Notes: a model not told the origin generated them from the letters alone. A DNA stretch of 64,000 nt from Candidatus Woesebacteria bacterium (GCA_016700095.1 CP065002.1:932145-996144), one strand, 5' to 3'. Counted from the first letter of the stretch, positions 35,392 through 62,231 are shown. Made by a program: numbers and translations.

Positions 35392-35592
35392 ATGAAAAAC
35401 GCTAACACTGAAAAAATAAAAGACCTTAAATCCAAGCTGAATCACTATGAATCTATATTAAAAGCCGAAATGAAAGGATATCGCGGAGTGGTTCATGAAT
35501 CTGCAGCAAGTGAAATAAAGCACACAAAAGTTATGGTTTATACAGCAATGGTAGATGGATTAAAAAAAGAAATACGGGATCTTGAAAATTAG
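35392..35592 (+). CDS. Small hypothetical protein (66 aa, coiled-coil-like).
   Basis: An ORF with no Shine-Dalgarno sequence, convergent with and overlapping the next gene by 4 nt. The only support is its open frame. Confidence 0.25.
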   Translation: MKNANTEKIKDLKSKLNHYESILKAEMKGYRGVVHESAASEIKHTKVMVYTAMVDGLKKEIRDLEN

Positions 35593-38789: not shown

Positions 38790-38794
38790 AACCT

Positions 38795-39478: not shown

Positions 39479-39480
39479 AC

Positions 39481-40680: not shown

Positions 40681-41074
40681 AACCACCGTGCCTTAAAGTC
40701 TGTAGTTTATTGGTAAATTATTAATGTGGGGTCAGTACTTTGCTTCATTAACAAGTTCTTTTGCTCATGGTCATTTACAAATTTTTTACATGGTTCTCCA
40801 CCGACTAAAGTCCGTAGTGACTTTTCTATGGTAACTTTTTCCGCTTTCAATGTTAAGACAAATCTCGATTCACTGACTAATCGCGTGGTATTACCTGAAG
40901 ATAAAAATATAGTATGTGTCACTCTCCAATATCTCACCTTTCAGAGTGCAAATGCCTGATTAACGCCAACTAGATAATATTTATGTGACTACACCTAAAA
41001 TCAGACTATTAGACACAGTAAACCAAGATACTAATAAATTGACCTGGACTTCGATCATGTTATAGCATTAATAA

Positions 41075-46454: not shown

Positions 46455-47013
46455 GTGAATTTATTGGGAAATTGTTCACGCAATGTCGGATTGGCTCGGT
46501 CACGGTCGGATATAATGGGATTTTTGACAGGCCACGAAATATTAAGATCCGGATCATTCCACGCTATTCCACTCGCTTTACTGTTGTCCCAATACTCTTC
46601 GACCAGATACATATAATTTACCTCTTTGCTTCCAAGTGCACATATTGAATTTCCTATTCCGGGAGGCAATAACAAAGCCGACCGTACAGGGTTTTCTTTC
46701 GTGCAATCAAAAATAAAAGTTTCTACTTTCCCAAAATCCGGCGAGTCTTCCCGAACATCAGCAATCGCAACAAATGTTTTTCCCGTAAGGGGATAAACAA
46801 TTTTTTTCCAGTTTTCTGTATGAATCGCTCTGATAACCCGCGGTTTAGATACCGAGTGATTCCATTGAACCGCTTTGAATTTTACACCCATTTCTTCCAA
46901 CTCGCTTACTCTAAATACTTCATGAAAAAACCTCGTTCATCGTAATAAACAGGTTTCTCGATAATGAAAACTCCTTCAATACTCGTTTTTTTCACAGTGA
47001 TTGTGTTTTCCAT
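46451..47013 (-). CDS. rmlC: dTDP-4-dehydrorhamnose 3,5-epimerase (RmlC), interrupted by a 1-nt indel in a homopolymer.
   Basis: The first 35 codons (MENTITVKKTSIEGVFIIEKPVYYDERGFF...) start at 47013 and hit a stop after MKYLE. The remaining 149 aa (46451..46900) are in another frame. One extra T in the coding-strand T6 run (forward A6 at 46925..46930) restores DERGFFHEVFRVSELEEMGVKF..., a typical cupin-fold RmlC. Confidence 0.7.
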
Positions 47014-47016
47014 ATT

Positions 47017-48021
47017 TTACTTCTGTTTAGTTTTAGAATACATTTTTTCCGATTTCAGTTTAAGCGGTCGCCACCACCATTCATTATCTTTGTACCACTT
47101 AATCGTTTCTATTAGCCATTTTTCAAAATCATGTTGAGGCCTCCAACCGAGATTTTTAATTTTTGTCCAATTAACCGCGTATCTTCTATCATGTCCACTT
47201 CTATCAGCAACAAATCTAATTTTTGAGTGATCGAAACCAAATGCCTCCAACAATAGATTGGTAACCTTAAGGTTATTTATATCATGTGTTAAACCACCAA
47301 CTAAATAAGTTTCCCCCACTTTTCCCTTATTAATAACCAGGTCAATCGCACTACAATGATCTTCGACATACAACCAATCTCTTACATTCTTTCCGTCCCC
47401 ATAAATCGGTACATCTTTCGAATCAATTAGATTTGTGATAAATCTGGGAAGCAACTTCTCGGGATCTTGAAAAGGACCGTAATTATTGGAAGTATTAGTG
47501 ATAGTTATATTCAAACCATACGTAGTGTGATATGCCCGAACAAGATGGTCGGATGCTGCTTTACTCGCCGAATATGGACTGTTTGGCTTGTAACATGATT
47601 TCTCACTAAATTTTTCTACACCACTTAACGGTAGAGCACCATACACTTCATCTGTAGACACATGGTGAAATCGTTTAACGCCGCGTTTTACCGCTTCATC
47701 CAATAAAACTTGAGTACCTATGACATTTGTTTTTATAAACACTTTTGGTCCAATTATCGAACGGTCGACGTGACTTTCTGCAGCAAAATGAACTACGACA
47801 TCGACATCCTTCATTGCATGAGACACTGTCGTAGGCGAGCAGATATCGCCCTTAATAAAAGTATAGTTAGAATTACCCCCAAAATCTTTCGTCGATGTCA
47901 AATGACCGGCATATGTTAATTTGTCTAAATTTACTATTTGATCCTTTGGATATTTTTTTAGCCAGTAACGGATAAAGTTACTGCCGATAAATCCCGCTCC
48001 TCCTGTTACAAGCAATCTCAT
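47017..48021 (-). CDS. rmlB: dTDP-glucose 4,6-dehydratase (RmlB).
   Basis: 334 aa. Motifs MRLLVTGGAGFIGSNF, YxxxK (YSASKAASD), HFAAESHVDRS and VSTDEVYG. Confidence 0.9.
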   Translation of the reverse strand: MRLLVTGGAGFIGSNFIRYWLKKYPKDQIVNLDKLTYAGHLTSTKDFGGNSNYTFIKGDICSPTTVSHAMKDVDVVVHFAAESHVDRSIIGPKVFIKTNVIGTQVLLDEAVKRGVKRFHHVSTDEVYGALPLSGVEKFSEKSCYKPNSPYSASKAASDHLVRAYHTTYGLNITITNTSNNYGPFQDPEKLLPRFITNLIDSKDVPIYGDGKNVRDWLYVEDHCSAIDLVINKGKVGETYLVGGLTHDINNLKVTNLLLEAFGFDHSKIRFVADRSGHDRRYAVNWTKIKNLGWRPQHDFEKWLIETIKWYKDNEWWWRPLKLKSEKMYSKTKQK

Positions 48022-48267
48022 AGGTTGTTCATAAAATGATAATTAATTAATAGTGCTTTACTTTGAAAGCAAGCTTTTAAATCCCGCTCCTGACGTTACA
48101 AGCAATTTCATAGGTTGTTCATAAAATGATAATTAATTAATAGTGCTTTACTTTGAAAGCAAGCTTATAAATCCCGCCCCTGACGTTACAAGCAATCTCA
48201 TAGGTTGTTCATAAAATGATAATTAATTAATAGTGCTTTACTTTGAAAGCAAGCTTATAAATCCCGC
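47989..48267. repeat. Tandem direct repeat, 3.1 copies of a 90 bp unit spanning the rmlB start codon and its 5' region.
   Basis: The unit aaatcccgc(t/c)cc(tcc/tga)(t/c)gttacaagcaat(c/t)tcataggttgttcataaaatgataattaattaatagtgctttactttgaaagcaagctt(t/a)ta occurs at 47989-48078, 48079-48168 and 48169-48258, with a partial copy at 48259-48267. Copy 1 carries the real rmlB ATG (48021..48019). Copies 2 and 3 carry decoy ATGs encoding MKLLVTSGAGFKSLLSK-like 17-aa peptides. Confidence 0.9.
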
Positions 48268-48302
48268 ACTTTTAATTATAATTAAGTTTTATTGCCGAAA
48301 TA

Positions 48303-49382
48303 TTAAACTCTTACTTTGGATTTTTCTCCAATGAACAATTTTATCCAATGAGTGGGATCTTCCAAATCATAAACTTCGGCTTCGTTGCCAATCATACTTT
48401 CGTTAATTGGTTGTTTGACGTTTATTATTCTTACATTTTCCATCAATACACTATCTTCTAAATGACTTTTTTCAATTACACATCCACTGCTAATAGATGA
48501 ATATGGACCAATATACGAATCACTTATTTCAACATTGTCGCTTATTGACACAGGGCCTTTTATTTCTGAATTTCTAATTTTACAGTTTTTTCCCACACTC
48601 ACTCTACCGATTATTTTCGTACTCCTGTCGATTTTTGACCCCATATCATCTACCAGGTATTCATCTAACAAATATCTATTGGATTCTATCCAGTCATTAA
48701 ATTTACCAGGGTCTAACCACTTTCCTTTATACTCAATTACATCGACCCGATATTTATTGTCAATTAACCATTGGAAAACTGATGGTATTTCATATTCTCC
48801 ACGCGCTGATGGTACTATCTTGTTTTTTCCCGTGAAGCATTTGAAAACATTATGGTCACCAAAATATAATCCGGGGACAGCAAAGTCGTGTGGGGAATTC
48901 TTTGGTTTTTCCACATATTTTATAAGTCTGTTTGTTTTCGAGAAATAAGGGACACCAAGACGGGAGTTTTCAGGATGATGTACCATAGTCACCATGCCAT
49001 TTGGCTTGTTTTTCCGAAAGTAGTCAGTAACTTCTTTAATACCTTTTGTAAAAATATTATCGCCTAAATGGTATACGAAACTATCACCATTCAATTTCTC
49101 TTCACATACTTGGACAACGTTTGCCAGTCCAATTGGTTTTTCTTGTAATACGTAGGTAAATTTCGCTCCCCACTTACTTCCATCACCTAAATACGACTTC
49201 ACCACATCTAGCCAACCGGGGTTATAGGTAATTAATATATCTTTTATGTCTGCTTCGACAACAGATTCAATTGGATAGAAAATCAATGGTTTATTGGCTA
49301 CTGGAATAAAATGTTTATTGGTAGAAAAAGTCAGAGGTTGCATTCGCGTTCCTCGTCCTCCTGTAGGTATTATTGCTTTCAT
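48303..49382 (-). CDS. rmlA: Sugar-1-phosphate nucleotidyltransferase, long form with a C-terminal left-handed beta-helix (glucose-1-phosphate thymidylyltransferase-like).
   Basis: 359 aa. The N-terminus KAIIPTGGRGTRMQPLTFSTNKHFIPVANKPLIFY matches the GxGxR nucleotidyltransferase signature. The C-terminal hexapeptide-repeat region is (VSIGKNCKIRNSEIKGPVSISDNVEI). It heads the rml gene run. Sugar and nucleotide specificity is not provable from sequence. Confidence 0.75.
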   Translation of the reverse strand: MKAIIPTGGRGTRMQPLTFSTNKHFIPVANKPLIFYPIESVVEADIKDILITYNPGWLDVVKSYLGDGSKWGAKFTYVLQEKPIGLANVVQVCEEKLNGDSFVYHLGDNIFTKGIKEVTDYFRKNKPNGMVTMVHHPENSRLGVPYFSKTNRLIKYVEKPKNSPHDFAVPGLYFGDHNVFKCFTGKNKIVPSARGEYEIPSVFQWLIDNKYRVDVIEYKGKWLDPGKFNDWIESNRYLLDEYLVDDMGSKIDRSTKIIGRVSVGKNCKIRNSEIKGPVSISDNVEISDSYIGPYSSISSGCVIEKSHLEDSVLMENVRIINVKQPINESMIGNEAEVYDLEDPTHWIKLFIGEKSKVRV

Positions 49383-49632: not shown

Positions 49633-50463
49633 ATGACTAAAAAAAATATCGGTATTCGCCCCACCATGTTACTGTGGTGTGTGCCCCCACTTGTGGCAAT
49701 TATTTTATTGATCGGTTTTTTACTAAATTCTGGAAGTGGTATGAAATTTCCTCGTGAAATTGTACTTTCCGAGACAACCGCAAATTTTGAGGATTTTCCT
49801 AAGATTAAATTAACGGGTCATGGAGCAATTACATTTTGGTTCGATGATGCATGGAAATCGCAATACGATGTTGCATTTGACATACTTGACGAGCGACATA
49901 TTAACGCAGCGCTTGCCGTACCAACAAAATTGGTCGGATTTGACGCTTATATGGATTGGGATCAAGTAATTAAATTGCGCGAGAAGGGGTGGGAAATTAC
50001 TTCTCACAGTAGATCTCACGACTGTAGTACCGACAACTTGGACTTCAATTCATTGAATGAGGAGATTGAAGGATCGAAAAAAGATCTCGAAGCCCATGGT
50101 ATTCGTACAAATATCTATCTTCCTCCATGTGGTATTACATCTAAAATATCAAATAGTTTGGTTTTGTATCACTACGAGTATCAGAGATTAATCGAGGCGG
50201 GATTTAACGACATTCCCGTTGAAGATCCCTTTGGAATAAAAATCCAAGAAGTCGGTAGACACACTACGGTAAGTGATGTCGAAAAATGGATTAGGGTTGC
50301 TCAAAAAGACAACAAGTGGTTGATATTAATGTTCCATCAGATCGATAACGACGATACAAGATACGGTATAGATCCAGTCACATACAGAAGCATAGTTGAT
50401 CTGGTTGATAATTCCAATATTCAAATAGTGCTACCTACCCAGATACTTGAAAAATCCATATGA
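49633..50463 (+). CDS. Polysaccharide deacetylase (NodB-homology / CE4 domain), membrane-anchored.
   Basis: 276 aa. An N-terminal TM helix. CE4 motifs ITFWFDDAW, HSRSHD and LPPCG. Confidence 0.8.
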   Translation: MTKKNIGIRPTMLLWCVPPLVAIILLIGFLLNSGSGMKFPREIVLSETTANFEDFPKIKLTGHGAITFWFDDAWKSQYDVAFDILDERHINAALAVPTKLVGFDAYMDWDQVIKLREKGWEITSHSRSHDCSTDNLDFNSLNEEIEGSKKDLEAHGIRTNIYLPPCGITSKISNSLVLYHYEYQRLIEAGFNDIPVEDPFGIKIQEVGRHTTVSDVEKWIRVAQKDNKWLILMFHQIDNDDTRYGIDPVTYRSIVDLVDNSNIQIVLPTQILEKSI

Positions 50464-51536
50464 CCAAACGACAAGTATGTATTGTTATTGCTGCCTACAA
50501 CGAAGAAAGGGTTATCGGGAAAACTCTCAGAAGATTGTCAAAGATAATACCTGCAACCGATATTTATGTGGTTGACGATGGAAGCGTAGATAAAACCGCT
50601 CAAATAGCAAGAAAATATACACCCAATGTTCTTACAAAAGCTAACAGTGGTAAAGGCAGTTCATTGCAATACGGAATAAAGAATTTTCGGCTTTGTCAGA
50701 AATATAAATATATTACCCCAAACGACGCCGACTCAATCTTACATCCAAAGTTTTTTGACAAAATTATTGAAACTTTTGAGATGGATAAGGATAGAAAAAT
50801 AGCCGGTATCGCAGGAAAAGTAGTTGGTAGCAATATAAATTGGTTAACCGCCTATCGACTCTGGGAATATGAAATAACGCAATTAATACACAAATCTGCA
50901 CAGTCTATAACTAACTCAATAACCGTATGTCCTGGACCATGCAGTGTTTTCCGATCAAGCATCTTTTACAAAATTAATTACCCCAAGGGTACAATCACCG
51001 AAGATATGGATCTAACATTTTACATTCATAGAAAAAAACTTGGTACGATTGTTTATGAACCGCAATCACTCGCTTACACTCAAGATCCCAAGAATTTAAA
51101 AAGTTACATACAACAAATAAACCGTTGGTACACAGGTTTTTGGCAATGTGTAATCAAACACAACATCCCCACAGGAAGACAACTATTGGATCTGGAAGTA
51201 TCTTTGCTGTGCATGGAGGGGATATTTAGCGGACTGTTTGTTTTATCATCGCCTTTACTTGTATTTCTGTTTATTGGACATCATAATTATTTATTTCTGT
51301 ACGCTATTATTACCGATTTTCTTCTTTTTGTTCTACCCTCTACTTTATATGTGGCAAGTAAATTCGCATCCCCAAAAATACTTCTCTATATTCCGCATTT
51401 TTATTTCTTAAGAGCAGTTAGTAGCTTGATATTTATCAGAAATTATGGGATAGTATTCTTGGGTAGAGATAGAAAACTTAGTGCGAGTTGGGATACTGCT
51501 CGTTATTCATTTCAGAAATTCAGTTCAATTCATTAA
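50460..51536 (+). CDS. Processive GT2 beta-glycosyltransferase (NodC/IcaA/PgaC/chitin-synthase-like) with C-terminal TM helices.
   Basis: 358 aa. Motifs VCIVIAAYNEERVI, VVDDGSVDKT, TEDMDLT and the Q-x-x-R-W motif (QQINRWYTGFWQ), followed by four TM helices. The start overlaps the deacetylase stop (ATGA). Confidence 0.8.
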   Translation: MTKRQVCIVIAAYNEERVIGKTLRRLSKIIPATDIYVVDDGSVDKTAQIARKYTPNVLTKANSGKGSSLQYGIKNFRLCQKYKYITPNDADSILHPKFFDKIIETFEMDKDRKIAGIAGKVVGSNINWLTAYRLWEYEITQLIHKSAQSITNSITVCPGPCSVFRSSIFYKINYPKGTITEDMDLTFYIHRKKLGTIVYEPQSLAYTQDPKNLKSYIQQINRWYTGFWQCVIKHNIPTGRQLLDLEVSLLCMEGIFSGLFVLSSPLLVFLFIGHHNYLFLYAIITDFLLFVLPSTLYVASKFASPKILLYIPHFYFLRAVSSLIFIRNYGIVFLGRDRKLSASWDTARYSFQKFSSIH

Positions 51537-51794: not shown

Positions 51795-52067
51795 TTAAAA
51801 TCTAAAAAGAACCGACAGAACTATCATCAGTCCAAGAGTTGCTATCGCCAAATATTCAACAAGAATTGAAACATCTAAGTCTTGGTGTAAGTAATGATGT
51901 ATAACTCCCCATACAAAATAAGAAAATGCTACCGCTACCGCCAGTGATGCCTGAAACATTCTATCGTAAGAAAAATGAATAATCCCAAGGGAACCTGACA
52001 AAATAATACCAACAAGGGGTATGTAATGATTCACGTGTCTTGAAACAATCTTGATTTTACTCATCAT
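51795..52067 (-). CDS. Small integral membrane protein (hypothetical).
   Basis: 90 aa with three hydrophobic helices, located directly downstream of the CAP-domain gene on the same strand. Confidence 0.4.
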   Translation of the reverse strand: MMSKIKIVSRHVNHYIPLVGIILSGSLGIIHFSYDRMFQASLAVAVAFSYFVWGVIHHYLHQDLDVSILVEYLAIATLGLMIVLSVLFRF

Positions 52068-52075
52068 TAGTTAGC

Positions 52076-53002
52076 TTAAAGAATCTTACCGGCTTTAACA
52101 ATAAGGACAATTACAAATATCATTCCCAAAAAGGTCAAATGTGCAATCAGTCTACCGCTTTTTCTGGGAACTTTTTTGTGCAATACAATAGCACTATCAA
52201 CGACCATCACAACTAACAGTAGTCCGAGAATAGTAAGTGAAATAGTTTTTGTTGCAGAAAATGGTGAAATTTCATAGGATGAAGACTTGCTGTTCATTGC
52301 GGTTTTTCCGTTTTGAATATCTCCTACAACAACCGGCTTCTCCTTACTTACAGTTGGTGTCACCGGTTGCGTCGTTGGCGTGACTACTGTTTCATCTACG
52401 GTATAAGCCGCGGCCACAGGAACACTTGTCTTGTCTTTGGCACTCCTGGTTCCAAAAAATTGGACAACAATAGTTGTATCTACACCATCAATATCACCCT
52501 CAACAACACCTATTCCAATTTCTTCGTACTTTGACGAAAGTAAATTTTCCCGATGTGAAGGCGATGCCATCCAGGCTTCAACCGCTGCTGTCGGGTTTGA
52601 GAAATCACGCGCCAAATTCTCGCCCGCATATCGATACACATAGCCCTCGTCTATGAAAAATTTCCATGGTTGCGTACCATCCGGCGAAACATGCGCCCAA
52701 TAGTTTTTCGCCAACATATCTTGCCCCTTGAGATACGCAGCTTTATTTAGTACCTGACTAACTTCTAAGTTACCCACACCATTTTCCCTTCTTTTTTGGT
52801 TTGTAAGATTTACTACTTCATCTATTGAAATATTCGCAGCATAACCAAGGACTTTAACACCCTGCCTTGGAATAATTGTCAAAGCCAGCTGGGATAAGAG
52901 TACGCAAAAACCTATAAGAAAGAGGGTTGAAGAGTGTAGCAATTTAGCCTTGTGATTATTTGAATGCCTGGGAATTATCAAATGCGACAAATATGTAAAC
53001 AT
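52076..53002 (-). CDS. CAP/SCP (YkwD-like) domain protein with a Thr/Pro-rich linker and a C-terminal TM anchor.
   Basis: 308 aa. An N-terminal TM/signal segment. CAP motifs NQKRRENGVGNLEVSQVLNKAAYLKGQDMLAKNYWAHVSPDG and SPSHRENLL. The linker is VTPTTQPVTPTVSKEKP, and two C-terminal hydrophobic helices follow. Confidence 0.7.
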   Translation of the reverse strand: MFTYLSHLIIPRHSNNHKAKLLHSSTLFLIGFCVLLSQLALTIIPRQGVKVLGYAANISIDEVVNLTNQKRRENGVGNLEVSQVLNKAAYLKGQDMLAKNYWAHVSPDGTQPWKFFIDEGYVYRYAGENLARDFSNPTAAVEAWMASPSHRENLLSSKYEEIGIGVVEGDIDGVDTTIVVQFFGTRSAKDKTSVPVAAAYTVDETVVTPTTQPVTPTVSKEKPVVVGDIQNGKTAMNSKSSSYEISPFSATKTISLTILGLLLVVMVVDSAIVLHKKVPRKSGRLIAHLTFLGMIFVIVLIVKAGKIL

Positions 53003-53234
53003 ATATACATATTAGCTTTATAACCAAAGGTAATCAATATTTACTACATATAGTTTTAACTAGATTGCAGGGTGTTTATACACCAAATGTATCCAGTTTG
53101 CATTGATATAATTCGATTACTACTAGCACAGCAACGGTAACGTTCTAGCCACGAAATGTGTTATAATATCCTGTAGTATTTTAAGCGTTTGTTTTAGGAA
53201 TATATTTTGTACCACAAAGTGCGTCAAGTTTTTC

Positions 53235-54989
53235 ATGCAAATTCATATGGCTAATAATTATTTGAAATATATCAACAATTCCCGGAGATATCGTGTTGCG
53301 GGAATACTTTATATTGTTACAACCGTTGTATATCTTTTTTGGCTTAATGGTCATCTTAACTACCAGGATTGGTGGCTAAGTTTGCCTTTCTTTTTTGCTC
53401 AAGCGTATACAGCTATGCTTGTGACGTTGTCCGTTATAAACAACTGGAAAGCAAAATATGAAACCGTTAGACCCACACTGCCAACCAATTTACCATGTGT
53501 AGCAATCGTCGTACCTGTTTACGAAGAGCCTATCGACATCATACAACGTACTCTCAAATCTTTACTACATATATCATACGACAAGGACTTGGTAATCATT
53601 GTTAGTAAGGGATATAACGGCAATTTCAAAGAAACTGCCTATACCCAAAAGCTTATAGATATGGTCAATACTGTTTGCAGTGATCACGCTAATATTTCAA
53701 CAAAATCCGCTAAACATCAAAGAAAAAATATACATCTACTATTTTCCAATCAACAAAATAATGCAAAGGCGGGAAATCTCAATGCTACGCTAGATTTCTT
53801 GGCTAAAGAATATCCATGGATTGATCATGTATTAACACAGGATGCTGACGAAATAGCATATTGCGACTTACTAAAAGCCACGATGGGATATTTCAACGAT
53901 CCCAAAATTGCATATGTTCAAACAATTAAACAAGCAGATGTCAATAAACACGATCCTTTCGGCAACCATGATCTGATGTGGTACTGTCGTACGGCAGCAA
54001 GTAGAAATGCCGATAATGCAATGTTTGCTTGTGGGTCAGGAGTAGTGTGGAAGATTAGCGCCCTTCGCTCAATTGGTGGCTTTGCTACATGGAATTTAGT
54101 TGAGGATCTTACTACCTCATATAACTTACTTGCCGCGGGCTGGAAATCTTCCTACCATTACGAAGCATTGTCTAAAGGCATCGCACCGGAAGATTTACCT
54201 AATTTTATTAAACAAAGAAGTACTTGGGCACTTGACAACATGAGGCTATTCTTTTGGGATAATCCATTATTCAAAAAAGGGTTAACTTTGAGGCAAAAAC
54301 TTCATTTTATTGAAACACCGTTATTTTATCTAAACGGATATGCAGGTATCGCATTTGTACTTACAGTCTCAGCGAGTTTATATTTTCGTGTTTGGCCAAC
54401 TACCTCCAGTGCCTTAACACACGCTTTATTTATCTTTCCTTCATTTATAACCATGGAGATATATTTTTTATTGTTAGCAGACACAATTCCGTTTAGAAGA
54501 ATTAGACAGTTTTGGGTTGGTCTTGCCCCCGTTTTTATTATCACATCATTACAAGCTTTGTTGTACGGTCCCAAGAAAAAACCTACTTACCAAGTAACCA
54601 GAAAAATAAATAAAGTTGGTAACTATTTACATATGGTGTTGCCGCAATTAGTGTTACTTGTATTAATTGTAGTCGCTCTTCTAAAAAATATATTGGGCAC
54701 TCCCTTGTATTCCGGTTTTGATTGGGCTGCGCTTTTTTGGGGTTTTTATCTGGCTTCTTTTTATCTACAAATTATTCGAGTGTCGATGTGGAATTGGATA
54801 CCCGACATAAGTATCGAGGCTATAACAATTGGTGGTTTGCCTAATTGGTTTCCAAATTTTGACAAGCTGAAAAACATATTTGGATCTACTCCATTGATTA
54901 ATCGTAGTCACGGATTCAACACACCAGACAACACTCACCATGTACCTTACACGAAAAGTACTGATTATCACTCAAATAGTAACAAGTAA
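53235..54989 (+). CDS. Cellulose-synthase-like processive GT2 (CesA/BcsA-like catalytic subunit, no PilZ domain).
   Basis: 584 aa. Two N-terminal TM helices. Motifs VAIVVPVYEEP, QDADE, FACGSGVVW, VEDLTTSY and QRSTWALDN (a QxxRW-like motif), followed by six C-terminal TM helices. Confidence 0.75.
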   Translation: MQIHMANNYLKYINNSRRYRVAGILYIVTTVVYLFWLNGHLNYQDWWLSLPFFFAQAYTAMLVTLSVINNWKAKYETVRPTLPTNLPCVAIVVPVYEEPIDIIQRTLKSLLHISYDKDLVIIVSKGYNGNFKETAYTQKLIDMVNTVCSDHANISTKSAKHQRKNIHLLFSNQQNNAKAGNLNATLDFLAKEYPWIDHVLTQDADEIAYCDLLKATMGYFNDPKIAYVQTIKQADVNKHDPFGNHDLMWYCRTAASRNADNAMFACGSGVVWKISALRSIGGFATWNLVEDLTTSYNLLAAGWKSSYHYEALSKGIAPEDLPNFIKQRSTWALDNMRLFFWDNPLFKKGLTLRQKLHFIETPLFYLNGYAGIAFVLTVSASLYFRVWPTTSSALTHALFIFPSFITMEIYFLLLADTIPFRRIRQFWVGLAPVFIITSLQALLYGPKKKPTYQVTRKINKVGNYLHMVLPQLVLLVLIVVALLKNILGTPLYSGFDWAALFWGFYLASFYLQIIRVSMWNWIPDISIEAITIGGLPNWFPNFDKLKNIFGSTPLINRSHGFNTPDNTHHVPYTKSTDYHSNSNK

Positions 54990-54991
54990 CC

Positions 54992-56557
54992 ATGGAACTG
55001 TCATTTAACAAAGTAAAATTTCGCATCACTAAACTTAAGATTGCTTACCTAAGCTTAATATCCGTATTCTTGCTTTATTTGATTAAAGATATGCAGTTTA
55101 ATACGGCATTTGTCGACGAAGCAATATATGCAACTATCGGTGAAGAGGTACTTAGAAAAATATACTGGGAGAATGCAATTTCATGGATGGGTGGATCTTA
55201 TCTCTATCCAGTTATTAGCGGGTTTATTAATCGGTATTATGGACTGGAAGGAATAAGAATGTTCTCAGCATTATGCGTATTAACTGCGGGTGTTTTGTCC
55301 GCTAAATTAGCTCGACTGCTTGGCGGAAAATATAGTTCTCTTGCGGCGCTTATCTTTTTTTTATTTTCTTCACTTTCTCTAAACTTGGGACAACTTGGAA
55401 CTTACGACACACCTAGTCTTATGTGCATGTCGATTTCATTTTATTGCGTAATTACCTCCAGATATCACATTGGTAAACGTAAGTTTTTACTACTTATCTT
55501 ATCATCCTTCTTTATGACACTTGCTGTTCTTAGCAAGTATGTAGCAATTTTATTTGTACCCACAATTATTTTAGCTATTATTCCGACTGTAAAAAATACA
55601 ACAGAGTTTATAAAACATATTCCCAAACTTACTGTATATATTTTGTGTTGGTCTCTTCCATTTACAGCACTAGTGGGTTGGTATGTATTTGTCAACTACT
55701 CACAAGTAATTAATTTTTTTGAAGGCGATTTCTTTTCTGAGCCTTCAAACTTACTAACCATATTTACAACGCTAATACAATCAACTAACTTCATAATCAT
55801 TGGAGCAACCACTTCCCTAGTATATGCTTTGCTTAAAGTTAAGGGGGAGAAAAAATGGTTAGTTATAGTATTGTTTATCGGAGGACTCGCTCCAATCTTA
55901 TATCACCTATCTTCGATGAATATTAGATCTTTTCCAAAACATCTCGTTTTTACTTTATTCTATTGGGTGCCATTAACAGGGTGGATATTAAACAAAATTT
56001 ATACCAAATTAACTCAAGTTTCCAATAGTTTTACTTTTATTAATAATTCTTATCAACTGATTTGGACAACTTTATTTATTCTTATTATCACCAACACATG
56101 GTTAAGTTTTGCCAAACACTGGCAATTCCAAAGATCATGGCCAAGCAGTACTGCAACATTAGAATACTTGAGAGAGCATAGGAAAAATGATGATAAAATA
56201 TTTGCCGAAGCTGCAGCCATTTATAAATTTCATATGTTTGAAGGTTTTGAAGATCCATCCGCGTGGCCTTCCACTTGGCATTTAGAATACAAAGGCAAAT
56301 TTGGCGTAGACGCAATGAAGATGGCTATCAGTGAAAAAGCATTCGACTACATAATATTAAATGATTATTTTACCAGTGAAATTAACCGCGAAATTAAACC
56401 TGTTATTAATGAATATTATGAAGTAGTAGCTTTCGACGATTACAAGCTTAGCGGTGTACACACCATAACAACGCTTGTTTGGCAACCGAAAGATGATACT
56501 AACATACTGGTCCTGAGTGAAAATAACGACTGGTTTTCATATTTTTCCAAACCTTAG
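54992..56557 (+). CDS. GT-C membrane glycosyltransferase (ArnT/PMT-like, DE motif).
   Basis: 521 aa. The N-terminal loop is AFVDEAIYATIGEE. About 12 TM helices and a C-terminal soluble domain. It starts 3 nt after the cellulose-synthase-like gene. Confidence 0.65.
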   Translation: MELSFNKVKFRITKLKIAYLSLISVFLLYLIKDMQFNTAFVDEAIYATIGEEVLRKIYWENAISWMGGSYLYPVISGFINRYYGLEGIRMFSALCVLTAGVLSAKLARLLGGKYSSLAALIFFLFSSLSLNLGQLGTYDTPSLMCMSISFYCVITSRYHIGKRKFLLLILSSFFMTLAVLSKYVAILFVPTIILAIIPTVKNTTEFIKHIPKLTVYILCWSLPFTALVGWYVFVNYSQVINFFEGDFFSEPSNLLTIFTTLIQSTNFIIIGATTSLVYALLKVKGEKKWLVIVLFIGGLAPILYHLSSMNIRSFPKHLVFTLFYWVPLTGWILNKIYTKLTQVSNSFTFINNSYQLIWTTLFILIITNTWLSFAKHWQFQRSWPSSTATLEYLREHRKNDDKIFAEAAAIYKFHMFEGFEDPSAWPSTWHLEYKGKFGVDAMKMAISEKAFDYIILNDYFTSEINREIKPVINEYYEVVAFDDYKLSGVHTITTLVWQPKDDTNILVLSENNDWFSYFSKP

Positions 56558-56687: not shown

Positions 56688-57329
56688 CTATTTTTTGGGT
56701 TTCGCAACTACAATTAGTCTTTTGCTGTCCTTGTAACCGGAGCAAGTATACAGTGTCAGCGTCTCATCCTCGGTCGGTTTTATCACTTGAGTTTCATTGG
56801 GAAAGACTTCTGTAATACTAGTGATTTCGTATGCATGCCATGCTTTAGTAGACACTTCGCTTGAGATATAATTATTATCTACACCATTTTCCCTTATGTC
56901 AGACACACTTAACACATATACACTATCTTTCACTTTTACTTTCTTGAGTGGTTCAAAAAGACCCTCTCTGGCGTGTGCAAATATAACTTGATTCCCTGCT
57001 TTTCCCGGTATGCCTGATCCTTTTCCCCAACCCGCTTTATCATCAAATACCTCCCAATATCCATTTATCACTTCTGCCGTTTTAACTTCTAAATCAATAT
57101 TTACACTTGGTATTATTATCCGAGTAGGTGTCTCACTATCATTATCCGTCTCTCGAAATCCTTCCATCGATATCGGTTCGTCGTTGTATGCATAATTATC
57201 CGGTTGAGTAATAAATATATTGTTCCAGAATATTAGCAAGCTTCCGATTAATAGAATCACACATCCTGCAATTACTTTCTCAACATGTATCTGAAGTGTT
57301 GTTCTTTTGATTTTATTGATTGAATTCAT
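56688..57329 (-). CDS. Sortase-family transpeptidase.
   Basis: 213 aa. An N-terminal TM anchor. Motifs IIPSVNIDLEV, the His region VIFAHAREGLF, the catalytic TLxTC motif (LTLYTCSGY) and a downstream Arg (KRLIVVAKP). It is the last gene of a four-gene minus-strand operon. Confidence 0.7.
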   Translation of the reverse strand: MNSINKIKRTTLQIHVEKVIAGCVILLIGSLLIFWNNIFITQPDNYAYNDEPISMEGFRETDNDSETPTRIIIPSVNIDLEVKTAEVINGYWEVFDDKAGWGKGSGIPGKAGNQVIFAHAREGLFEPLKKVKVKDSVYVLSVSDIRENGVDNNYISSEVSTKAWHAYEITSITEVFPNETQVIKPTEDETLTLYTCSGYKDSKRLIVVAKPKK

Positions 57330-57460
57330 TTTCTAGCGTGATTTTAGAGGATATTAGTAATATTTGCAAAATATTATTTATGAATGTTTATCGTGCCGGG
57401 TAATTAAGCAATCTGGTGTATTCAAGTTGACATAAGGAAACTGAGGTGTTTACTTTTAGT

Positions 57461-58582
57461 TTAGCGATATTTGTATTTTTTATTAACAGAGCTACCGACA
57501 GTTTTTAATCCAAGTCCGACAAAGATAACTCCCATCCAATAGATATATGGATTAACTAAATTACTTGATGTATCGGAAAGCCCTAAGATTTCAATAGCAT
57601 CAATAGCTACAGAATAAACTGCCGCCTGAACTGCATGGGTATTATTCGTACTGCCACCAATAGGATCTCCGGGGTCAACGGGGTCGCTAAAATCATCCGG
57701 ATCGTCCGGGTCTTCCGGATCGTCGATGATACAACAATCATCAATAGTAATCGAGCCAAAATTAATAGGACCGTTATCAATATAGAAATTAAAGTCAATA
57801 TCCCCGGTTAGAATACTCACGTCTCCACTGTTACCATTCGCGTGATTGTTACCGGTATTGAGATCCCATAAAACATTATTTAATATATTTGCAGTGTTAA
57901 ATATATAAGTTGTATCGTTTGCGGTATTGGTGTAATTTAACGAATTGAATGAGTTTACTCCATTCTCGTTAATTACCATGTTAGTACTTGTACTTTTATC
58001 TGAATTAACTTTGACATCGTGAATATTTATTGGGCCATTATTAATACCGCCCGCTACAGTTATACTACCGGTGGAAATATTTACATTGCCGTTATTTTGA
58101 TTTGCTACATTGTTACCCGTATTTACATTTCCATATATAGTATTTTTAATAGTCGTATTTTGATTTACCACTACCTGTGTATTTAGTTCTTGGAAAACCG
58201 AAGTAGTATTAGTAGAACCATTTCCGTTGCCCACTATGGTAATTTCTGTTTCGTTTTGACAGCAATCACCGGTATCCACAAGAGAAGTGTTTGTATTGTT
58301 TTCGACTACGACAGTTTGCGAAGTATCCCCGGTGACAATTTCAACTTCTCCACCATTTTCACTAGCGGTATTTCCGCCCGTGTTTGAATCTATGTGAATA
58401 TTATTATCGATATTTGCAGTGTTTGTTTGAACAACATTCTGATTATTTTCAACTTGAATATTTACTTCATTGTTAGTATCCGAACCATTGCCGGTAATGG
58501 TGATATCAAGAGCCGTAACCAGGCGAACCGGATACGATATCAATATCAACATGGCGAGAATTAATGTAATAATGTTTTTCAT
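57461..58582 (-). CDS. Secreted Asn/Thr/Gly-rich tandem-repeat protein (paralogue C) with a hydrophobic C-terminal tail.
   Basis: 373 aa. A signal peptide, then repeated units (TGNGSDTNNEVNIQVENNQNVVQTNTANIDNNIHIDSNTGGNTASENGGEVEIVTGD; NTGNNVANQNNGNVNISTGSI; NTGNNHANGNSGDVSILTGDI). Cys pairs DCC and DDCC, an acidic DPEDPDDPDDFSDPVDPGDP stretch, and a C-terminal helix YIYWMGVIFVGLGL followed by KKYKYR. Confidence 0.6.
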   Translation of the reverse strand: MKNIITLILAMLILISYPVRLVTALDITITGNGSDTNNEVNIQVENNQNVVQTNTANIDNNIHIDSNTGGNTASENGGEVEIVTGDTSQTVVVENNTNTSLVDTGDCCQNETEITIVGNGNGSTNTTSVFQELNTQVVVNQNTTIKNTIYGNVNTGNNVANQNNGNVNISTGSITVAGGINNGPINIHDVKVNSDKSTSTNMVINENGVNSFNSLNYTNTANDTTYIFNTANILNNVLWDLNTGNNHANGNSGDVSILTGDIDFNFYIDNGPINFGSITIDDCCIIDDPEDPDDPDDFSDPVDPGDPIGGSTNNTHAVQAAVYSVAIDAIEILGLSDTSSNLVNPYIYWMGVIFVGLGLKTVGSSVNKKYKYR

Positions 58583-58619
58583 TAACCGTTTGGCAGAAGA
58601 AATTTTTGGCAGAAGAAAT

Positions 58620-60833
58620 TTATCTAGTCTTTACGACAATTAGTTTGCTTTTTTTAACAAATGCGATTATGGCAAGTGCGGGCAAAGTAAAGATTAACCA
58701 AGCAAGATTAATATTGTAAATACCTTCCGCCGTTTCAGCTTGCCCGCTTGTTATCGATTCGCTTCCTACCATTGCAATACTTTCATTGTCTGGAGTAGAC
58801 GTTATTGCCACTCCGGCAACTTGTTTGTTAAGTTTTTCGGATTTACCGGTAGTTTTATAGACTAAAGAAGCTACTGCTACACTGCCGCCTCCCTGGTCAT
58901 TTTGACTACTAACCTCATCGGTAATATCGTCATTGTCGGAAGTATTAAACCCGGTGTCAACATTTGCTCCACCAATTGCAGTATTTTGATTATATATTTC
59001 AGCCGTAGACTCTGTTTTAGAATTACCGGGAGTTACAAAATCCCCAAGCCAACTTCCAAAGACATTTACAACCGTGACAACCAATTTACCTTCGCCGACA
59101 ATATTATTGTTTACAAAATTTACAATATTGGCAATTATATTTGCATCACCCGTTAATATTCCACTAGTTCCTCCTGTGTTGGCATTAGCCGTATTTCCAC
59201 CCGTATTGGCAGTTAAATTAACGTTATTTACAATCTTGGCATCATTATCTTGAACGGTCGTACTATTGGAAGATTGATTTACATTTGCTGTGTTTGTCGA
59301 ACCACTACCGTTATCTGCGTTACTTACATTGACTTCACCGTTTTCACCAATCTGAAATTCGAATCCATCAGACCCTGCAAGGTTAGATCCATCCGGTGCT
59401 CCCATAATCTTGCCGATCCAATTTCCCGCCTCATTAATAATTACCAACCACCAATTTCCACTATCAATATTGGTATTTGCTACATTGAGAACCTGAGCAT
59501 CCACATTTGAATTACCTGTTGATAAATAATTATCACCATTTGTGTTTTGCGCTAAACTATTATCACCTGTTTGGGCATCGAAGATTAGATTGTTCTCGAT
59601 GTCTGCATTATTAAACTGGTAGGTACTATCGGTTGTCGCAGTTGTTGCATTAGCGAGATTGGTACTACCCGTACCATTTTCACTATTGGCCACACTCGTA
59701 CCCAAACCACAACAATCCAGTGAAAAACCATCCGGCATAATAATATCTCCAATCAAATTACCGAATATATTTACTACACCATAAATTATATCTCCCGCAA
59801 TATTGTTATTAGCGAAAGTCAATACGTTGGCAGCTACATTTGCATCACCCGTATCAATTAAATTATCCCCGCCGGTGTTGTACGATGTGCTGTTATTACC
59901 CGAATCAGCAAGAAGAGTTAGACTATTTTCAACCGTTGCGTCATTATTTTGAAATGTTATATCGTTGTCAAGATCAGTAAGATTGGCTTCGTTAGTTGAG
60001 TTGGCACCATTTGCTGTATTTGTCACACTAGATTGACCGTCACATCCTTGTATACAATTACTTCCAAAATCTAAAATAATGTCACCTACGTGATCATCGG
60101 CGATGTTGAATTCCGAAACAGCTACGCCATCAACATTGGTATTAACCGAGGTTATAATTGTACCAGTCGTATTTGCATTACCTGTTTGAATAAATGAATT
60201 ATCTCCTGTATTGAAACTTGACGAATTCTGCCCGGTGATCGTTTCCTGATCCACGTTGTTTGCCACAGCGGCAGAATTATTTTGATTGGTCACATTATCA
60301 TTTGCTATCGTTGCCGATCCGTTGTTGGTAGAACCACTTCCGTTGCCTGTATTTGCAACATATGCACCACCCGCAGAACCGCCACCTAACGTAGCTATGT
60401 TATTATTTCCTGTTGTGATGACTGTCGTATCATTTGTTGCATCGCCTGTCTGGATATTACTTTCACCCTCACTTTGATTCTGTGTGTTCGTTGGTGTTGG
60501 TGTAGGTGAGACGTAACTTTCGGAATTATTTGTTCCACCATTCGTTTCCTCCTGTTGATTTTGAGTATTATCATTATTCGTATCATGACCATGCGACGCT
60601 GGAGAACCCGTGGGCGACGGAGTAATACTTACCTGTGCCGGACTCGGATTACTCGGTGGCGTTGGAACCAAAGGAGAAGCGGGCGGTGTTGGTGCCGTCG
60701 GTGTACCAGGTGCTGCCGGTGCGGTTGGCGGTGTTGGTGCCTCCAAAGCATAGACACTCGCGGTATTTGTTAGTAAAAATACCGCTGTAAATAGCGTAAT
60801 TATTATTTGTCTAATCCTATATTTTGTTTTCAT
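58620..60833 (-). CDS. Secreted Asn/Thr/Gly-rich repeat protein (paralogue B) with a Pro/Thr-rich N-terminal linker and a C-terminal TM plus basic tail.
   Basis: 737 aa. A signal peptide followed by EAPTPPTAPAAPGTPTAPTPPASPLVPTPPSNPSP. Repeated modules of the form NTGGDNLIDTGDANVAANVLTFANNNIAGDIIYGVVNIFGNLIGDIIMP occur four times. Motifs DCC and CIQGCDG. C-terminus IYNINLAWLIFTLPALAIIAFVKKSKLIVVKTR. Confidence 0.6.
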   Translation of the reverse strand: MKTKYRIRQIIITLFTAVFLLTNTASVYALEAPTPPTAPAAPGTPTAPTPPASPLVPTPPSNPSPAQVSITPSPTGSPASHGHDTNNDNTQNQQEETNGGTNNSESYVSPTPTPTNTQNQSEGESNIQTGDATNDTTVITTGNNNIATLGGGSAGGAYVANTGNGSGSTNNGSATIANDNVTNQNNSAAVANNVDQETITGQNSSSFNTGDNSFIQTGNANTTGTIITSVNTNVDGVAVSEFNIADDHVGDIILDFGSNCIQGCDGQSSVTNTANGANSTNEANLTDLDNDITFQNNDATVENSLTLLADSGNNSTSYNTGGDNLIDTGDANVAANVLTFANNNIAGDIIYGVVNIFGNLIGDIIMPDGFSLDCCGLGTSVANSENGTGSTNLANATTATTDSTYQFNNADIENNLIFDAQTGDNSLAQNTNGDNYLSTGNSNVDAQVLNVANTNIDSGNWWLVIINEAGNWIGKIMGAPDGSNLAGSDGFEFQIGENGEVNVSNADNGSGSTNTANVNQSSNSTTVQDNDAKIVNNVNLTANTGGNTANANTGGTSGILTGDANIIANIVNFVNNNIVGEGKLVVTVVNVFGSWLGDFVTPGNSKTESTAEIYNQNTAIGGANVDTGFNTSDNDDITDEVSSQNDQGGGSVAVASLVYKTTGKSEKLNKQVAGVAITSTPDNESIAMVGSESITSGQAETAEGIYNINLAWLIFTLPALAIIAFVKKSKLIVVKTR

Positions 60834-60859
60834 TATTATGTTAATTTGTTATAAAAATT

Positions 60860-60909
60860 TCCTTTCGGTTGCAGGGTTATCCGCCGAAGTGCCAGCAGAT
60901 GCACCCTGC
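60860..60909 (-). terminator. GC-rich stem-loop between repeat-protein genes A and B: a candidate intrinsic terminator or attenuator.
   Basis: On the minus strand GCAGGGU(25-nt loop)ACCCUGC (60909..60871) is followed by a CCGAAAGG mini-hairpin and AAAUUUUUAUAAC. It sits 15 nt after the gene A stop and 27 nt before the gene B start. Confidence 0.4.
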
Positions 60910-60923
60910 TTCCCTTAGGTTAG

Positions 60924-62231
60924 CTATGCTCCAAGGTAAGCCATTAAATCAGCTAAGCTGAATGAAAAATTAAAGCTTAAACCTGTTGTTGGCCAATCAA
61001 ATGATTGGTCAGGAGTTGCGCCAAAGATATTTGAATTGCTGTCATTATATACAGCACTATCAACCCATGAATCACCAGTCATTACTCCAGGATCACCATA
61101 AGCATCACCTGTGTTCTGATTGGTATCATTGTGACCTGTGTCACCATCTAGGTACATATTGGTATCGCATCCTCCACCAAATTGTGGCATATGGAATTGT
61201 CCCAACATATTGAGTTTACCAGGATAAACGCGAGGCATATAGCCTCCACAAGTATTATCTTGCCAAACACCAAGATCGTTACCTAAATTAGCTTTCAATA
61301 CACTGTTGGCATCATAGCCGTTTCCAGCGATTTTTGCGTGAACATCTTGAATGCAGTCACAATCGACGTCTGCGTAATTAAAGTTAACTGAATTGTCAAC
61401 TGTTGCGTAAACATCAGAATCTCCTGTTTGGATACCCACGTTTCCACCGGTATTTTGATTTGCATCATTTTTACCAGTTTCGGAATCTACTGTAACGAAG
61501 TTATTGATTCTGGCTGAATTGTCTTGAACTAATTCGGTATTTTTACCCATGTTCAATTCAATTTTGTTCCAAGTGTCAGCACCGTTATCAACGATTCTTG
61601 CACTCAAAACTGAACCTAAACCATTACCTCCACCAACACGTGCTACGTTTGAATTACCCTCATTTAGGATACCTACGCCAACTGTTGAGCTACCTGTCAT
61701 TGTGTAAACATCTCCACCGGTATTTTGATTTGCATCATTTCTACCAGTTTTTGAATCAACATTTACTCTATTATTGACATTAGCGTTGTTGTTTTGATAA
61801 ACACCTGTTTCGCTTTTGTCATTAAGTTTTACAACGTTGTTTGAATCATATCCATTTCCGGAAACAACAACTTCTGTATCTTGATCACAATTACAATCTT
61901 CTACATCCGCAGCATTGCTGTTGAGGTTGTTTTTGACTGTTGTAACCACGGTTGAATTTCCAGTTTGAGTGTAAACGTCTCCTCCAGTATTTTGATTGGC
62001 ATTATTGCCACCTGTGTTTGATGATACTTGCACGTTATTATTAACGTTTGCATTATTATCTTGTGTAACAGTAGTAGTGCTTCCACTATTGTACTGAACA
62101 TTATTCCAGGTATCTGCTCCGTTACCCGTAATTTCTAGGGTTGTGGTGCCTGCCAATGCTGGAGTTGCAAGTTGCGCAAACATTGCTGCTGCTGCAGTTA
62201 ATGATGCGACTTTCTTTTGTAGTTTTGTCAT
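60924..62231 (-). CDS. Secreted Asn/Thr/Gly-rich repeat protein (paralogue A); the first gene of the operon with the strongest RBS, and the candidate major subunit.
   Basis: 435 aa. A signal peptide ends AQLATPALA. About four repeats of roughly 88 aa (ITGNGADTWNNV...NNANVNNNVQVSSNTGGNNANQNTGGDVYTQTGNSTV...EDCNCDQDTEVVV). Cys motifs DCNCDQD and DCDCIQD. Strong SD aaagggggtga precedes the ATG. The C-terminus is WPTTGLSFNFSFSLADLMAYLGA. Confidence 0.6.
   Translation of the reverse strand: MTKLQKKVASLTAAAAMFAQLATPALAGTTTLEITGNGADTWNNVQYNSGSTTTVTQDNNANVNNNVQVSSNTGGNNANQNTGGDVYTQTGNSTVVTTVKNNLNSNAADVEDCNCDQDTEVVVSGNGYDSNNVVKLNDKSETGVYQNNNANVNNRVNVDSKTGRNDANQNTGGDVYTMTGSSTVGVGILNEGNSNVARVGGGNGLGSVLSARIVDNGADTWNKIELNMGKNTELVQDNSARINNFVTVDSETGKNDANQNTGGNVGIQTGDSDVYATVDNSVNFNYADVDCDCIQDVHAKIAGNGYDANSVLKANLGNDLGVWQDNTCGGYMPRVYPGKLNMLGQFHMPQFGGGCDTNMYLDGDTGHNDTNQNTGDAYGDPGVMTGDSWVDSAVYNDSNSNIFGATPDQSFDWPTTGLSFNFSFSLADLMAYLGA

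Follow-up and report, generated by a model that had tools for sequence, protein, structure and literature searches.

The gene pair and its two products

A 64,000-nucleotide stretch of a Candidatus Woesebacteria genome (GCA_016700095.1, CP065002.1:932145-996144), called the window here and numbered from its first letter, carries two adjacent genes on its plus strand that are the subject of this work. The first, at 53235-54989 (+), encodes a 584-residue protein of glycosyltransferase family 2 (referred to as GT2), which analysis of the open reading frame (ORF), comparison with Pfam, NCBIfam and the Protein Data Bank (PDB), and AlphaFold2 (AF2) modelling identify as a BcsA-like, membrane-integrated glycan synthase without PilZ. 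The second, at 54992-56557 (+), encodes a 521-residue ArnT/PMT-like enzyme of the PMT_2 family (referred to as GT-C, after its fold), which Pfam, AF2 and Foldseek results predict to depend on polyprenyl-phosphate-sugar. Both ORFs lie where a preliminary description of the window had put them. The NCBI annotation starts GT2 at Met5, which gives 580 residues, and the protein P0001 from Candidatus Woesebacteria is 100% identical to the window GT2.

The stop codon of GT2 (TAA, 54987-54989) and the ATG of GT-C at position 54992 are separated by only 2 nucleotides, and no promoter- or terminator-like site exceeding shuffle expectation was found between the two genes, for which reasons they are likely to be co-transcribed. 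The promoter of such a two-gene operon presumably sits in the divergent intergenic region 5' of GT2 (53003-53234), where promoter-like hits were generic only and no more frequent than shuffle expectation.

Pfam matches of GT2 were to generic GT2 families only (Glyco_tranf_2_3, 6e-17). The match to the NCBIfam CelA profile (3.5e-51) spans profile positions 62-530 of 714 and so leaves out the PilZ part; scores against TIGR03030 (174 bits against a curated equivalog cut-off of 699) and PRK11498 (118 against 992) fell below threshold. When solved structures were searched by sequence, the relatives found in the PDB were BcsA chains only (E ~1e-30, residues 78-473). An AF2 model was built on an alignment of 26 relatives, with a predicted local distance difference test score (pLDDT) of 83 and a predicted template-modelling score (pTM) of 0.84. 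Its top Foldseek match was E. coli BcsA (9b8v_E; TMq 0.72, root-mean-square deviation 3.2, 534 columns), and the next were R. sphaeroides BcsA, plant CesA, CslF6 and hyaluronan synthases. By sequence and by fold, GT2 therefore classes with the membrane-integrated processive synthases, as the preliminary description had proposed.

Along the protein, the order of elements is two transmembrane (TM) helices, a GT-A domain, the QxxRW helix, two TM helices, an amphipathic helix, the gating loop and two final TM helices. The N-terminal helices (residues 18-39 and 43-69; 53286-53441 (+)), located by AF2 and hydropathy, correspond to BcsA TM3-4. The C-terminal membrane region (residues 352-517; 54288-54785 (+)), delimited by AF2, hydropathy and an alignment with BcsA that runs to residue 473, holds TM helices at 352-384, 393-415, 465-488 and 497-517, together with a helix at 420-444, ahead of the gating loop, that matches the BcsA interface helix IF3 by position. 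By AF2 and hydropathy, the core of two plus four TM helices matches the TM3-8 channel core of BcsA. The two N-terminal helices of the preliminary description were thus recovered, but its six C-terminal TM helices were not: five hydrophobic helices are present there, four of them TM and one IF3-like. The predicted model has a membrane-integrated fold with a glycan channel (TM3-8 and interface helices); its channel helices appear to be retained, together with the gating-loop motif and the acceptor Trp.

The C-terminal tail (residues 527-584; 54813-54986 (+)) was modelled with low confidence (pLDDT <50), has no Pfam match, and is neither alignable nor conserved in relatives. Pfam found no PilZ domain in GT2, and the CelA match stops at profile position 530; the absence of this domain, noted previously, is therefore borne out. 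None of the 49 window ORFs scanned against Pfam matched PilZ, GGDEF or a BcsB-type protein, nor was a BcsB-type protein found among the conserved neighbours at the 80 genome loci described below.

The active-site motifs previously quoted for GT2 are all in the translation, with DAD at 203-205, FACGSGVVW at 264-272, VEDLTTSY at 289-296 and QRSTWA at 327-332. Conservation was followed in an alignment of 26 GT2 relatives from Woesebacteria and Chloroflexota (alignment A1) and, for motif counts, in ~195 sequences of the wider family. The DxD motif D203-A-D205 (53841-53849 (+)) is invariant in the family, in which DAD(E/D) stands in place of DxDH. Likewise family-wide is VED (residues 289-291; 54099-54107 (+)) instead of TED, its counterpart in BcsA, which includes the catalytic-base Asp. 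The gating-loop motif YQVTRK (residues 452-457; 54588-54605 (+)) conforms to the FxVTxK of cellulose synthases, and YxVTxK is present in 180 of the 195 sequences. Residues D203, D205, E290, D291, W331, Y452, V454, T455 and K457 are all invariant in A1.

Two deviations had been missed in the preliminary description. The first is KQRSTW (residues 326-331; 54210-54227 (+)), a non-canonical QxxRW in which T330 aligns to BcsA R382; K326, Q327, T330 and W331 are invariant in A1, and KQxxTW occurs in ~185/195 family sequences. In BcsA, the Arg of QxxRW contacts the UDP diphosphate. Its replacement by Thr, taken with DAD(E/D) for DxDH, suggests a somewhat different donor site. The second deviation, seen in the window copy, is loss of the UDP-binding Asp that comes first in the signature: within a degenerate SKGYNGN motif (residues 124-130; 53604-53624 (+)), G126 and Y127 align to D179 and D180 of BcsA (CDDGG), and there is an insertion of 4 residues. 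The window GT2 thus departs from the D,D,D,QxxRW signature at two of its four positions, the first Asp and the Arg. It is not classed here as a cellulose synthase, but very probably acts in the same way.

Loss of the first Asp could mean that the window GT2 is impaired or repurposed, in a module that is decaying or in which GT2 is a channel or scaffold only, a possibility independent of the other alternatives considered below. It draws on the finding that SND(D) is kept in 41 of 44 Woesebacteria orthologue sequences at the site where the window copy has SKGYNG and its insertion, the Asp being lost elsewhere only in P0003 and P0009. Nevertheless, every other catalytic or channel motif is preserved and the ORF has its full length, P0009 retains a complete PKD-sortase-GT2/GT-C neighbourhood in spite of lacking the Asp, and a nearby Asn or Glu could substitute for it; impairment is hence considered rather unlikely. 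The losses in P0003 and P0009 look independent and similar to that in the window.

For GT-C, the Pfam PMT_2 score is 43.4 bits, above the gathering score of 26.1. The AF2 model (pLDDT 86, pTM 0.87) has the GT-C fold, with Foldseek matches to STT3, AglB, ArnT (TMq 0.58), ALG12, ALG9, PglB and Pmt4 (E 6e-8 to 7e-4), and a family profile of cross-phylum GT-C orthologues gave a single sequence match in the PDB, ArnT 5ezm (E 0.0016). An acidic pair in the first extracytoplasmic loop, D42-E43 of FVDEAIYA (55115-55120 (+)), was located by orthologue conservation and by alignment with ArnT, the family consensus vDEaIYa aligning onto ArnT PDEGRYAE. D42 is kept in 35/36 and E43 in 36/36 cross-phylum orthologues, and both are invariant in the alignments A2 and A3. 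This agrees with the DE-motif GT-C enzyme named in the preliminary description.

Beyond this motif, a set of eight residues (D42, E43, R89, D139, K182, Y183, Y304 and K316) is kept in 34-36 of the 36 orthologues, from several phyla, and is invariant in A3, which holds 21 sequences. Because this conservation shows selection, GT-C is unlikely to be a mere scaffold. A C-terminal extracytoplasmic alpha/beta domain (approximately residues 385-500; 56144-56491 (+)), seen in the AF2 model, extends from a conserved W383-P384. Family membership suggests a polyprenyl-phosphate-linked donor. None of the 12 other GT-C-like ORFs in the window is a BLAST-detectable paralogue of GT-C, so its orthologues could be tracked across genomes.

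Conservation and co-inheritance of the pair

Relatives of GT2 are encoded in ~408 stretches of the GTDB species-genome collection, and ~330 representative clusters make up the GT-C subfamily at E <= 1e-30. The module can therefore be called widespread, and it is uncharacterised. Synteny was followed at 80 genome loci with a GT2 relative, adjacency being defined as a GT-C orthologue within 800 nucleotides of GT2. GT-C adjoins GT2 at 44 of these loci and is absent within ~8 kb at 26, the remaining 10 being cut by a contig end, which gives adjacency at 44 of 70 informative loci. In Woesebacteria, the two genes are adjacent at 8/8 informative genome loci and, by independent gene calls, on 5/5 metagenome contigs (14/14 counting the window), even though they occur in three arrangements, with GT-C downstream on the same strand, downstream and convergent, or upstream on the same strand. 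Most Chloroflexota loci also show the adjacency; there, and in WWE3, GT-C lies directly upstream of GT2 on the same strand and often overlaps it. Some Solirubrobacteraceae have the pair as well. The two findings that, according to the preliminary description, would refute its reading (a GT2 that is non-processive or has no channel, and a pair not kept together in relatives) were thus both looked for, and each check turned out in favour of that reading.

When neighbouring ORFs were clustered, GT-C was the only family conserved across loci and phyla (42 loci), the next real cluster reaching no more than 8. Pairwise distance matrices for GT2 and GT-C were correlated with r = 0.94, a value that 0 of 2000 permutations reached and to which shared species phylogeny contributes. 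Adjacency is present in every deep clade of the GT2 tree, for which the simplest reading is that the pair is ancestral and that losses followed, mainly in Actinomycetota. What the analysis shows are the folds and motifs of the two proteins and the conservation and joint inheritance of the pair across phyla. Functional coupling of the two genes has good support, and we regard it as highly probable.

Given the density of glycosyltransferase genes in the window, some GT2 would be expected beside some GT-C by chance, and adjacency could then be an accident of a crowded region, the genes being unrelated in function. Against this, the adjacent genes are a specific orthologous pair, which has stayed together at 44 genome loci in several phyla and on five contigs, through changes of order and orientation and with correlated distances. 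Cross-genome synteny effectively refutes chance adjacency, which was rejected as extremely improbable.

Several GT2 relatives without a nearby GT-C (L031:7149-9521, L043:7047-9551 and P0068) have an N-terminal DUF4388 (PATAN-like) domain, which may be an alternative regulatory input replacing PilZ. A long ORF at locus L060 was considered as a GT-C::GT2 fusion and rejected, as it proved to be two genes split by a stop and a frame change. Five loci (L003, L005, L007, L008 and L009) come from metagenome-assembled genomes labelled 'uncultured Gammaproteobacteria bacterium'. These labels look wrong: the encoded proteins are 51-57% (GT2) and 41-44% (GT-C) identical to those of Woesebacteria and cluster inside the Woesebacteria clade.

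Neighbouring genes and the proposed function

Clues to the product come from hydrolases. In two independent cases, P0053 and L017, GT2 is fused to an extra TM helix, a Pro/Thr-rich linker and a C-terminal GH26-like glycoside hydrolase domain, the second being a WWE3 protein (L017:7998-10760) with GT-C upstream; because of the extra TM helix, the GH26-like domain is placed outside the cell. GH113 genes were found in seven Chloroflexota clusters and GH10 genes at six loci; in Ktedonobacter racemifer DSM 44963 (L012; ~129.0-134.1 kb of NZ_ADVG01000001.1), the gene order is GH10, GT-C, GT2. Of these families, GH26 and GH113 are of mannanase type, whereas GH10 is of xylanase type. As synthase-dependent systems usually include a gene for a hydrolase of the polymer that they make, the neighbours suggest an exported beta-linked glycan. 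Together with the KQxxTW, VED and DAD(E/D) changes, the hydrolases point to a backbone of beta-1,4 type, which need not be cellulose. The polymer is possibly mannan- or xylan-like and, in Woesebacteria, perhaps tied to sortase-anchored surface proteins.

A secreted GSDH-like protein (pyrroloquinoline quinone-type glucose/sorbosone dehydrogenase-like), often with PKD domains, is encoded at seven loci, one in Woesebacteria (L003:7705-8862) and six in Chloroflexota (L027, L035, L039, L057, L078 and L080). It recalls the oxidase partner of Streptomyces CslA.

Hydrolases also bear on the possibility that no long polymer is made, GT2 instead making and flipping a lipid-linked mono- or oligosaccharide that feeds GT-C, and so replacing both a GtrB-type synthase and a GtrA flippase. 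Extracellular hydrolases fused to or beside GT2 imply a polymer substrate; moreover, the full channel architecture typical of processive synthases is conserved in GT2, as are the acceptor Trp and the gating loop, and many relatives of GT2 have no adjacent GT-C. In favour of the idea, a GT2 and a GT-C invariably occur together in the classic GT2/flippase/GT-C glycosylation systems (PMC13390465), and no flippase is conserved beside the present pair. The active site is also non-canonical: KQxxTW is a feature of the whole family, and in the window copy the first Asp is missing. Overall, a lipid-sugar role for GT2 seems very unlikely.

At some Anaerolineae loci, a second GT-C paralogue is present in the same cluster, which fits side-chain addition better than a single ligation step. 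Ligation would be expected if GT-C acted like an oligosaccharyltransferase, moving a finished, lipid-attached glycan en bloc to peptidoglycan, lipid or protein. STT3, AglB and PglB, which are among the best fold matches of GT-C, transfer lipid-linked glycans in this way; no donor-synthase gene is conserved nearby, and the two genes would be self-sufficient if the GT2 product were itself the donor. The Arg-to-Thr change in QxxRW could in that case reflect unusual priming. BcsA-type synthases, however, are known to need no lipid primer, and no initiating phosphoglycosyltransferase is conserved near the pair. By sequence, GT-C is ArnT-like, and the donor of ArnT is a monophosphate-linked monosaccharide. 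With the second paralogues also fitting decoration better, transfer en bloc is thought to be rather improbable.

A further set of neighbours concerns the cell surface. In the window, a sortase gene (56688-57329 (-); Pfam Sortase, 3e-20) is convergent with GT-C, and a sortase adjoins the pair in 6 of 16 Woesebacteria loci, which makes this a lineage-specific context. At five of the Woesebacteria loci (L005, L009, L081, L083 and L084), genes for an LPXTG-PKD protein and a sortase precede GT2 on the same strand, abutting or overlapping, and the PKD proteins carry a canonical LPATG, LPKTG or LPETG signal. The window region 56688-62231 (-), which follows GT-C, comprises the sortase plus three surface proteins that are rich in repeats and in Asn, Thr and Gly and have a TM helix and a basic tail at the C terminus; no obvious LPXTG was seen in them.

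From this context, GT-C could be a PMT-like protein O-glycosyltransferase for surface proteins (LPXTG/PKD), the two genes having been kept together because the same surface layer is built. Its PMT_2 family membership and PMT-type DE motif are consistent with such a role, as are the LPXTG-PKD and sortase genes before GT2 at the five loci and the sortase and repeat proteins after GT-C in the window. These neighbours are, however, confined to part of the Woesebacteria. The pair is also present in Chloroflexota, WWE3 and some Solirubrobacteraceae, where glycoside hydrolases recur instead, and its conservation in Chloroflexota would be left unexplained. In addition, the only sequence-level PDB match of GT-C is ArnT and not a PMT, and the MIR domain typical of eukaryotic PMTs is absent from GT-C by Pfam. 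A protein acceptor is considered unlikely on balance, although a real contender.

We favour a different reading, to which we would give a probability of about one half: the pair is a synthase-dependent module for a cell-surface beta-glycan, and a dedicated GT-C adds sugars to this glycan on the outer side of the membrane. In this mechanism, GT2, with six channel TM helices, interface helices and a gating loop and without PilZ or BcsB, would polymerise nucleotide-sugar at the cytoplasmic face and thread the chain through its own channel, free of control by cyclic di-GMP (c-di-GMP). GT-C, with an ArnT-like active site on the outer face, would take single sugars from polyprenyl-phosphate-sugar of a general pool. 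This donor would be made elsewhere in the genome, with candidates in the window at 33210-33929 and 35589-36800. Transfer of these sugars to the emerging chain would give a branched or decorated glycan. That both proteins act on one polymer, that the donor is lipid-linked and what the polymer may be are points that we infer. Glycan modification and protein glycosylation, both suggested in the preliminary description, remain the two leading hypotheses. Held more tentatively, at somewhat less than even odds, is the idea that the pair represents an unrecognised synthase class of monoderm and ultrasmall bacteria (Woesebacteria, WWE3, Chloroflexota and some Actinomycetota), in which a c-di-GMP-independent KQxxTW synthase and a GT-C form a unit and a non-cellulose beta-glycan is glycosylated at the channel exit.

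Several points weigh against a glycan-decorating module. At 26 of the 70 informative loci, mostly from Actinomycetota, GT-C is missing within 8 kb, and the synthase thus need not have it close by; when ten candidate neighbours at Actinomycetota loci were scanned for a substitute GT-C family, none was a GT-C. No GT-C::GT2 fusion was found: a profile search with the cross-phylum GT-C alignment returned only the same 38 proteins, and no protein of more than 720 residues was among the best 150 of 2159 representative matches. A physical link between GT2 and GT-C is hypothetical. The hydrolases disagree on one polymer (GH26/GH113 versus GH10), and neighbour clustering gave no donor-synthase or flippase gene conserved beside the pair. 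The sortase and LPXTG neighbours in Woesebacteria equally fit a protein acceptor for GT-C. Finally, the window GT2, as a copy without the first UDP-binding Asp, could be impaired.

Genomic setting and relation to known systems

The window as a whole is a glycosylation island with eight PMT_2 genes (Pfam), ~5 more GT-C-like ORFs and >10 GT2 genes, a Wzx-like flippase and rhamnose-pathway genes; an Rfam scan of the window gave no matches. Seven PMT_2 genes, starting at 3058, 4836, 6292, 11932, 17247, 25639 and 28737, lie in the region 1220-33228, where the GT-C genes are interleaved with at least 8 soluble GT2 genes and one GT1 gene. Further features are the Wzx-like flippase (21317-22819), a PTPS_related membrane protein (23670), BLAST-related ORFs of 500-600 residues at 1220, 10261 and 31585, and an unclassified one at 19624. 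Beyond these lie a DPM1/GtrB-like GT2 (33210-33929 (-)) and a GT2 fused to a GtrA/DPMS transmembrane domain (35589-36800 (-)), the only GtrA domain in the window. They are candidate makers, and a candidate flipper, of polyprenyl-phosphate-sugar donors for the window GT-C enzymes, including the one studied here, and are ~18-22 kb from the pair.

A MacAB-like export set (HlyD-type adaptor, ABC ATPase and MacB/FtsX permease) followed by a PilB/T2SSE-type ATPase occupies 37650-42313 (+) and is unrelated to the pair. Next come genes of the dTDP-rhamnose pathway (45549-49382 (-)), encoding RmlD-like (45549-46454 (-)) and RmlB-like (47017-48021 (-)) proteins and an RmlA-like nucleotidyltransferase with a hexapeptide domain (48303-49382 (-)), with a short ORF among them (46451-46900). 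These genes are just upstream of two synthase modules, the pair and a second synthase-type module 1.7 kb upstream of it (49633-51536). The latter looks like a synthase and deacetylase pair of the poly-N-acetylglucosamine (PNAG) type: a membrane-anchored polysaccharide deacetylase gene (49633-50463 (+)) overlaps by 4 nucleotides the gene for a PgaC/IcaA-like GT2 with C-terminal TM helices (50460-51536 (+); TIGR03937, 7.6e-28, below cut-off).

Divergent from GT2, and upstream of it, Pfam and NCBIfam identified genes for a CAP/YkwD protein (52076-53002) and a DUF5656-like small membrane protein (51795-52067). The preliminary description had reported both, and they are real; the link to the pair that it suggested is not supported by synteny. 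They were rejected as members of the system, homologues being found near the pair at no other locus.

Among known systems, the closest to GT2 is BcsA (R. sphaeroides 4hg6 and 4p00; E. coli 9b8v and 9fmv), with which it shares a GT-A domain, a six-helix channel with interface helices, and the DxD, ED base, acceptor Trp, FACGS (FFCGS-like), KAGN and xVTxK motifs, all present in the window protein. Unlike BcsA, GT2 has no PilZ domain, and hence no c-di-GMP control would be expected; it also has no BcsB, only two N-terminal TM helices, and a GT-C partner. In its active site, KQxxTW stands for QxxRW, VED for TED and DAD(E/D) for DxDH, and the first Asp is absent.

For the proposed cooperation between GT2 and GT-C, the nearest mechanistic precedent is BcsA-BcsG of E. 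coli, complexes of which (9b8v and 9fmz) were among the top structural matches of the GT2 model. There, too, a synthase is combined with an outward-facing polytopic membrane enzyme, BcsG modifying the nascent glycan with a lipid-derived donor. In contrast to GT-C, BcsG is a phosphoethanolamine transferase of the alkaline-phosphatase superfamily that uses phosphatidylethanolamine and adds no sugar, and the BcsA-BcsG system, unlike the window pair, also needs BcsB, BcsE, BcsF and c-di-GMP.

GT-C itself resembles ArnT (GT83; Cupriavidus metallidurans 5ezm) and the PMT_2/GT39 enzymes in its GT-C fold, in the DE-x-x-YA of the first outer loop and in basic residues of later loops. It differs from ArnT in being very distant in sequence, in having a small outer domain (~115 residues) and in its gene being tied to a processive synthase rather than to ArnC. 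Neither Woesebacteria nor Chloroflexota are expected to have lipid A, the ArnT acceptor, and GT-C cannot be ArnT in function.

The arrangement of a GT2 gene beside a GT-C gene is also known from GtrB/GtrA/Gtr*, CsbB/GtcA/YfhO and ArnC/ArnEF/ArnT, which likewise are presumed to use polyprenyl-phosphate-sugar outside the membrane to decorate a surface polymer. In those three-component systems, the GT2 is a small enzyme of DPM1/GtrB/ArnC type, whereas here it is of BcsA type; they include a GtrA-type flippase, and none is conserved near pairs of the window type. With a GT2 of the wrong type and no linked flippase, the pair is not a system of this kind.

Streptomyces CslA-GlxA-CslZ offers a further comparison, being a monoderm system in which a cellulose-synthase-like GT2 without PilZ or BcsB is encoded with an extracellular oxidase and a glycoside hydrolase. 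The GSDH-like and glycoside hydrolase neighbours found in Chloroflexota are comparable to these partners. Streptomyces CslA has the canonical QxxRW, and we know of no GT-C partner for it.

The preliminary description had called the pairing unusual. In keeping with this, a literature search for GT2-GT-C pairing, for the KQxxTW/QxxTW/QRGTW variant and for cellulose synthase in Patescibacteria or Chloroflexi returned nothing relevant, and there was no GT2-GT-C complex among the 50 PDB matches listed for the GT2 model. Synthase-dependent systems, such as those for cellulose, PNAG, alginate, Pel and hyaluronan, are defined by their partner proteins. The present system is best described as a probable synthase-dependent glycan system in which the active-site signature is non-canonical and the partner, a GT-C, is both novel and conserved, the chemistry proposed for it being an inference; a GT-C partner for a system of this kind is undescribed in the literature searched.

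In replacing Arg by Thr in QxxRW throughout the family, evolution has carried out a natural experiment, for in processive GT2 enzymes this residue is held to be indispensable for binding the donor. Cultured strains of Ktedonobacter and Dictyobacter carry the pair, which makes the hypothesis directly testable. If GT-C does decorate the emerging chain, the pair would be a simple route to branched extracellular glycans that needs neither Wzx/Wzy nor ABC machinery. One of the orphan PMT_2 genes in which Candidate Phyla Radiation genomes abound would thereby gain a function, and there would be a first point of entry to the surface glycans of Woesebacteria and of filamentous Chloroflexota.

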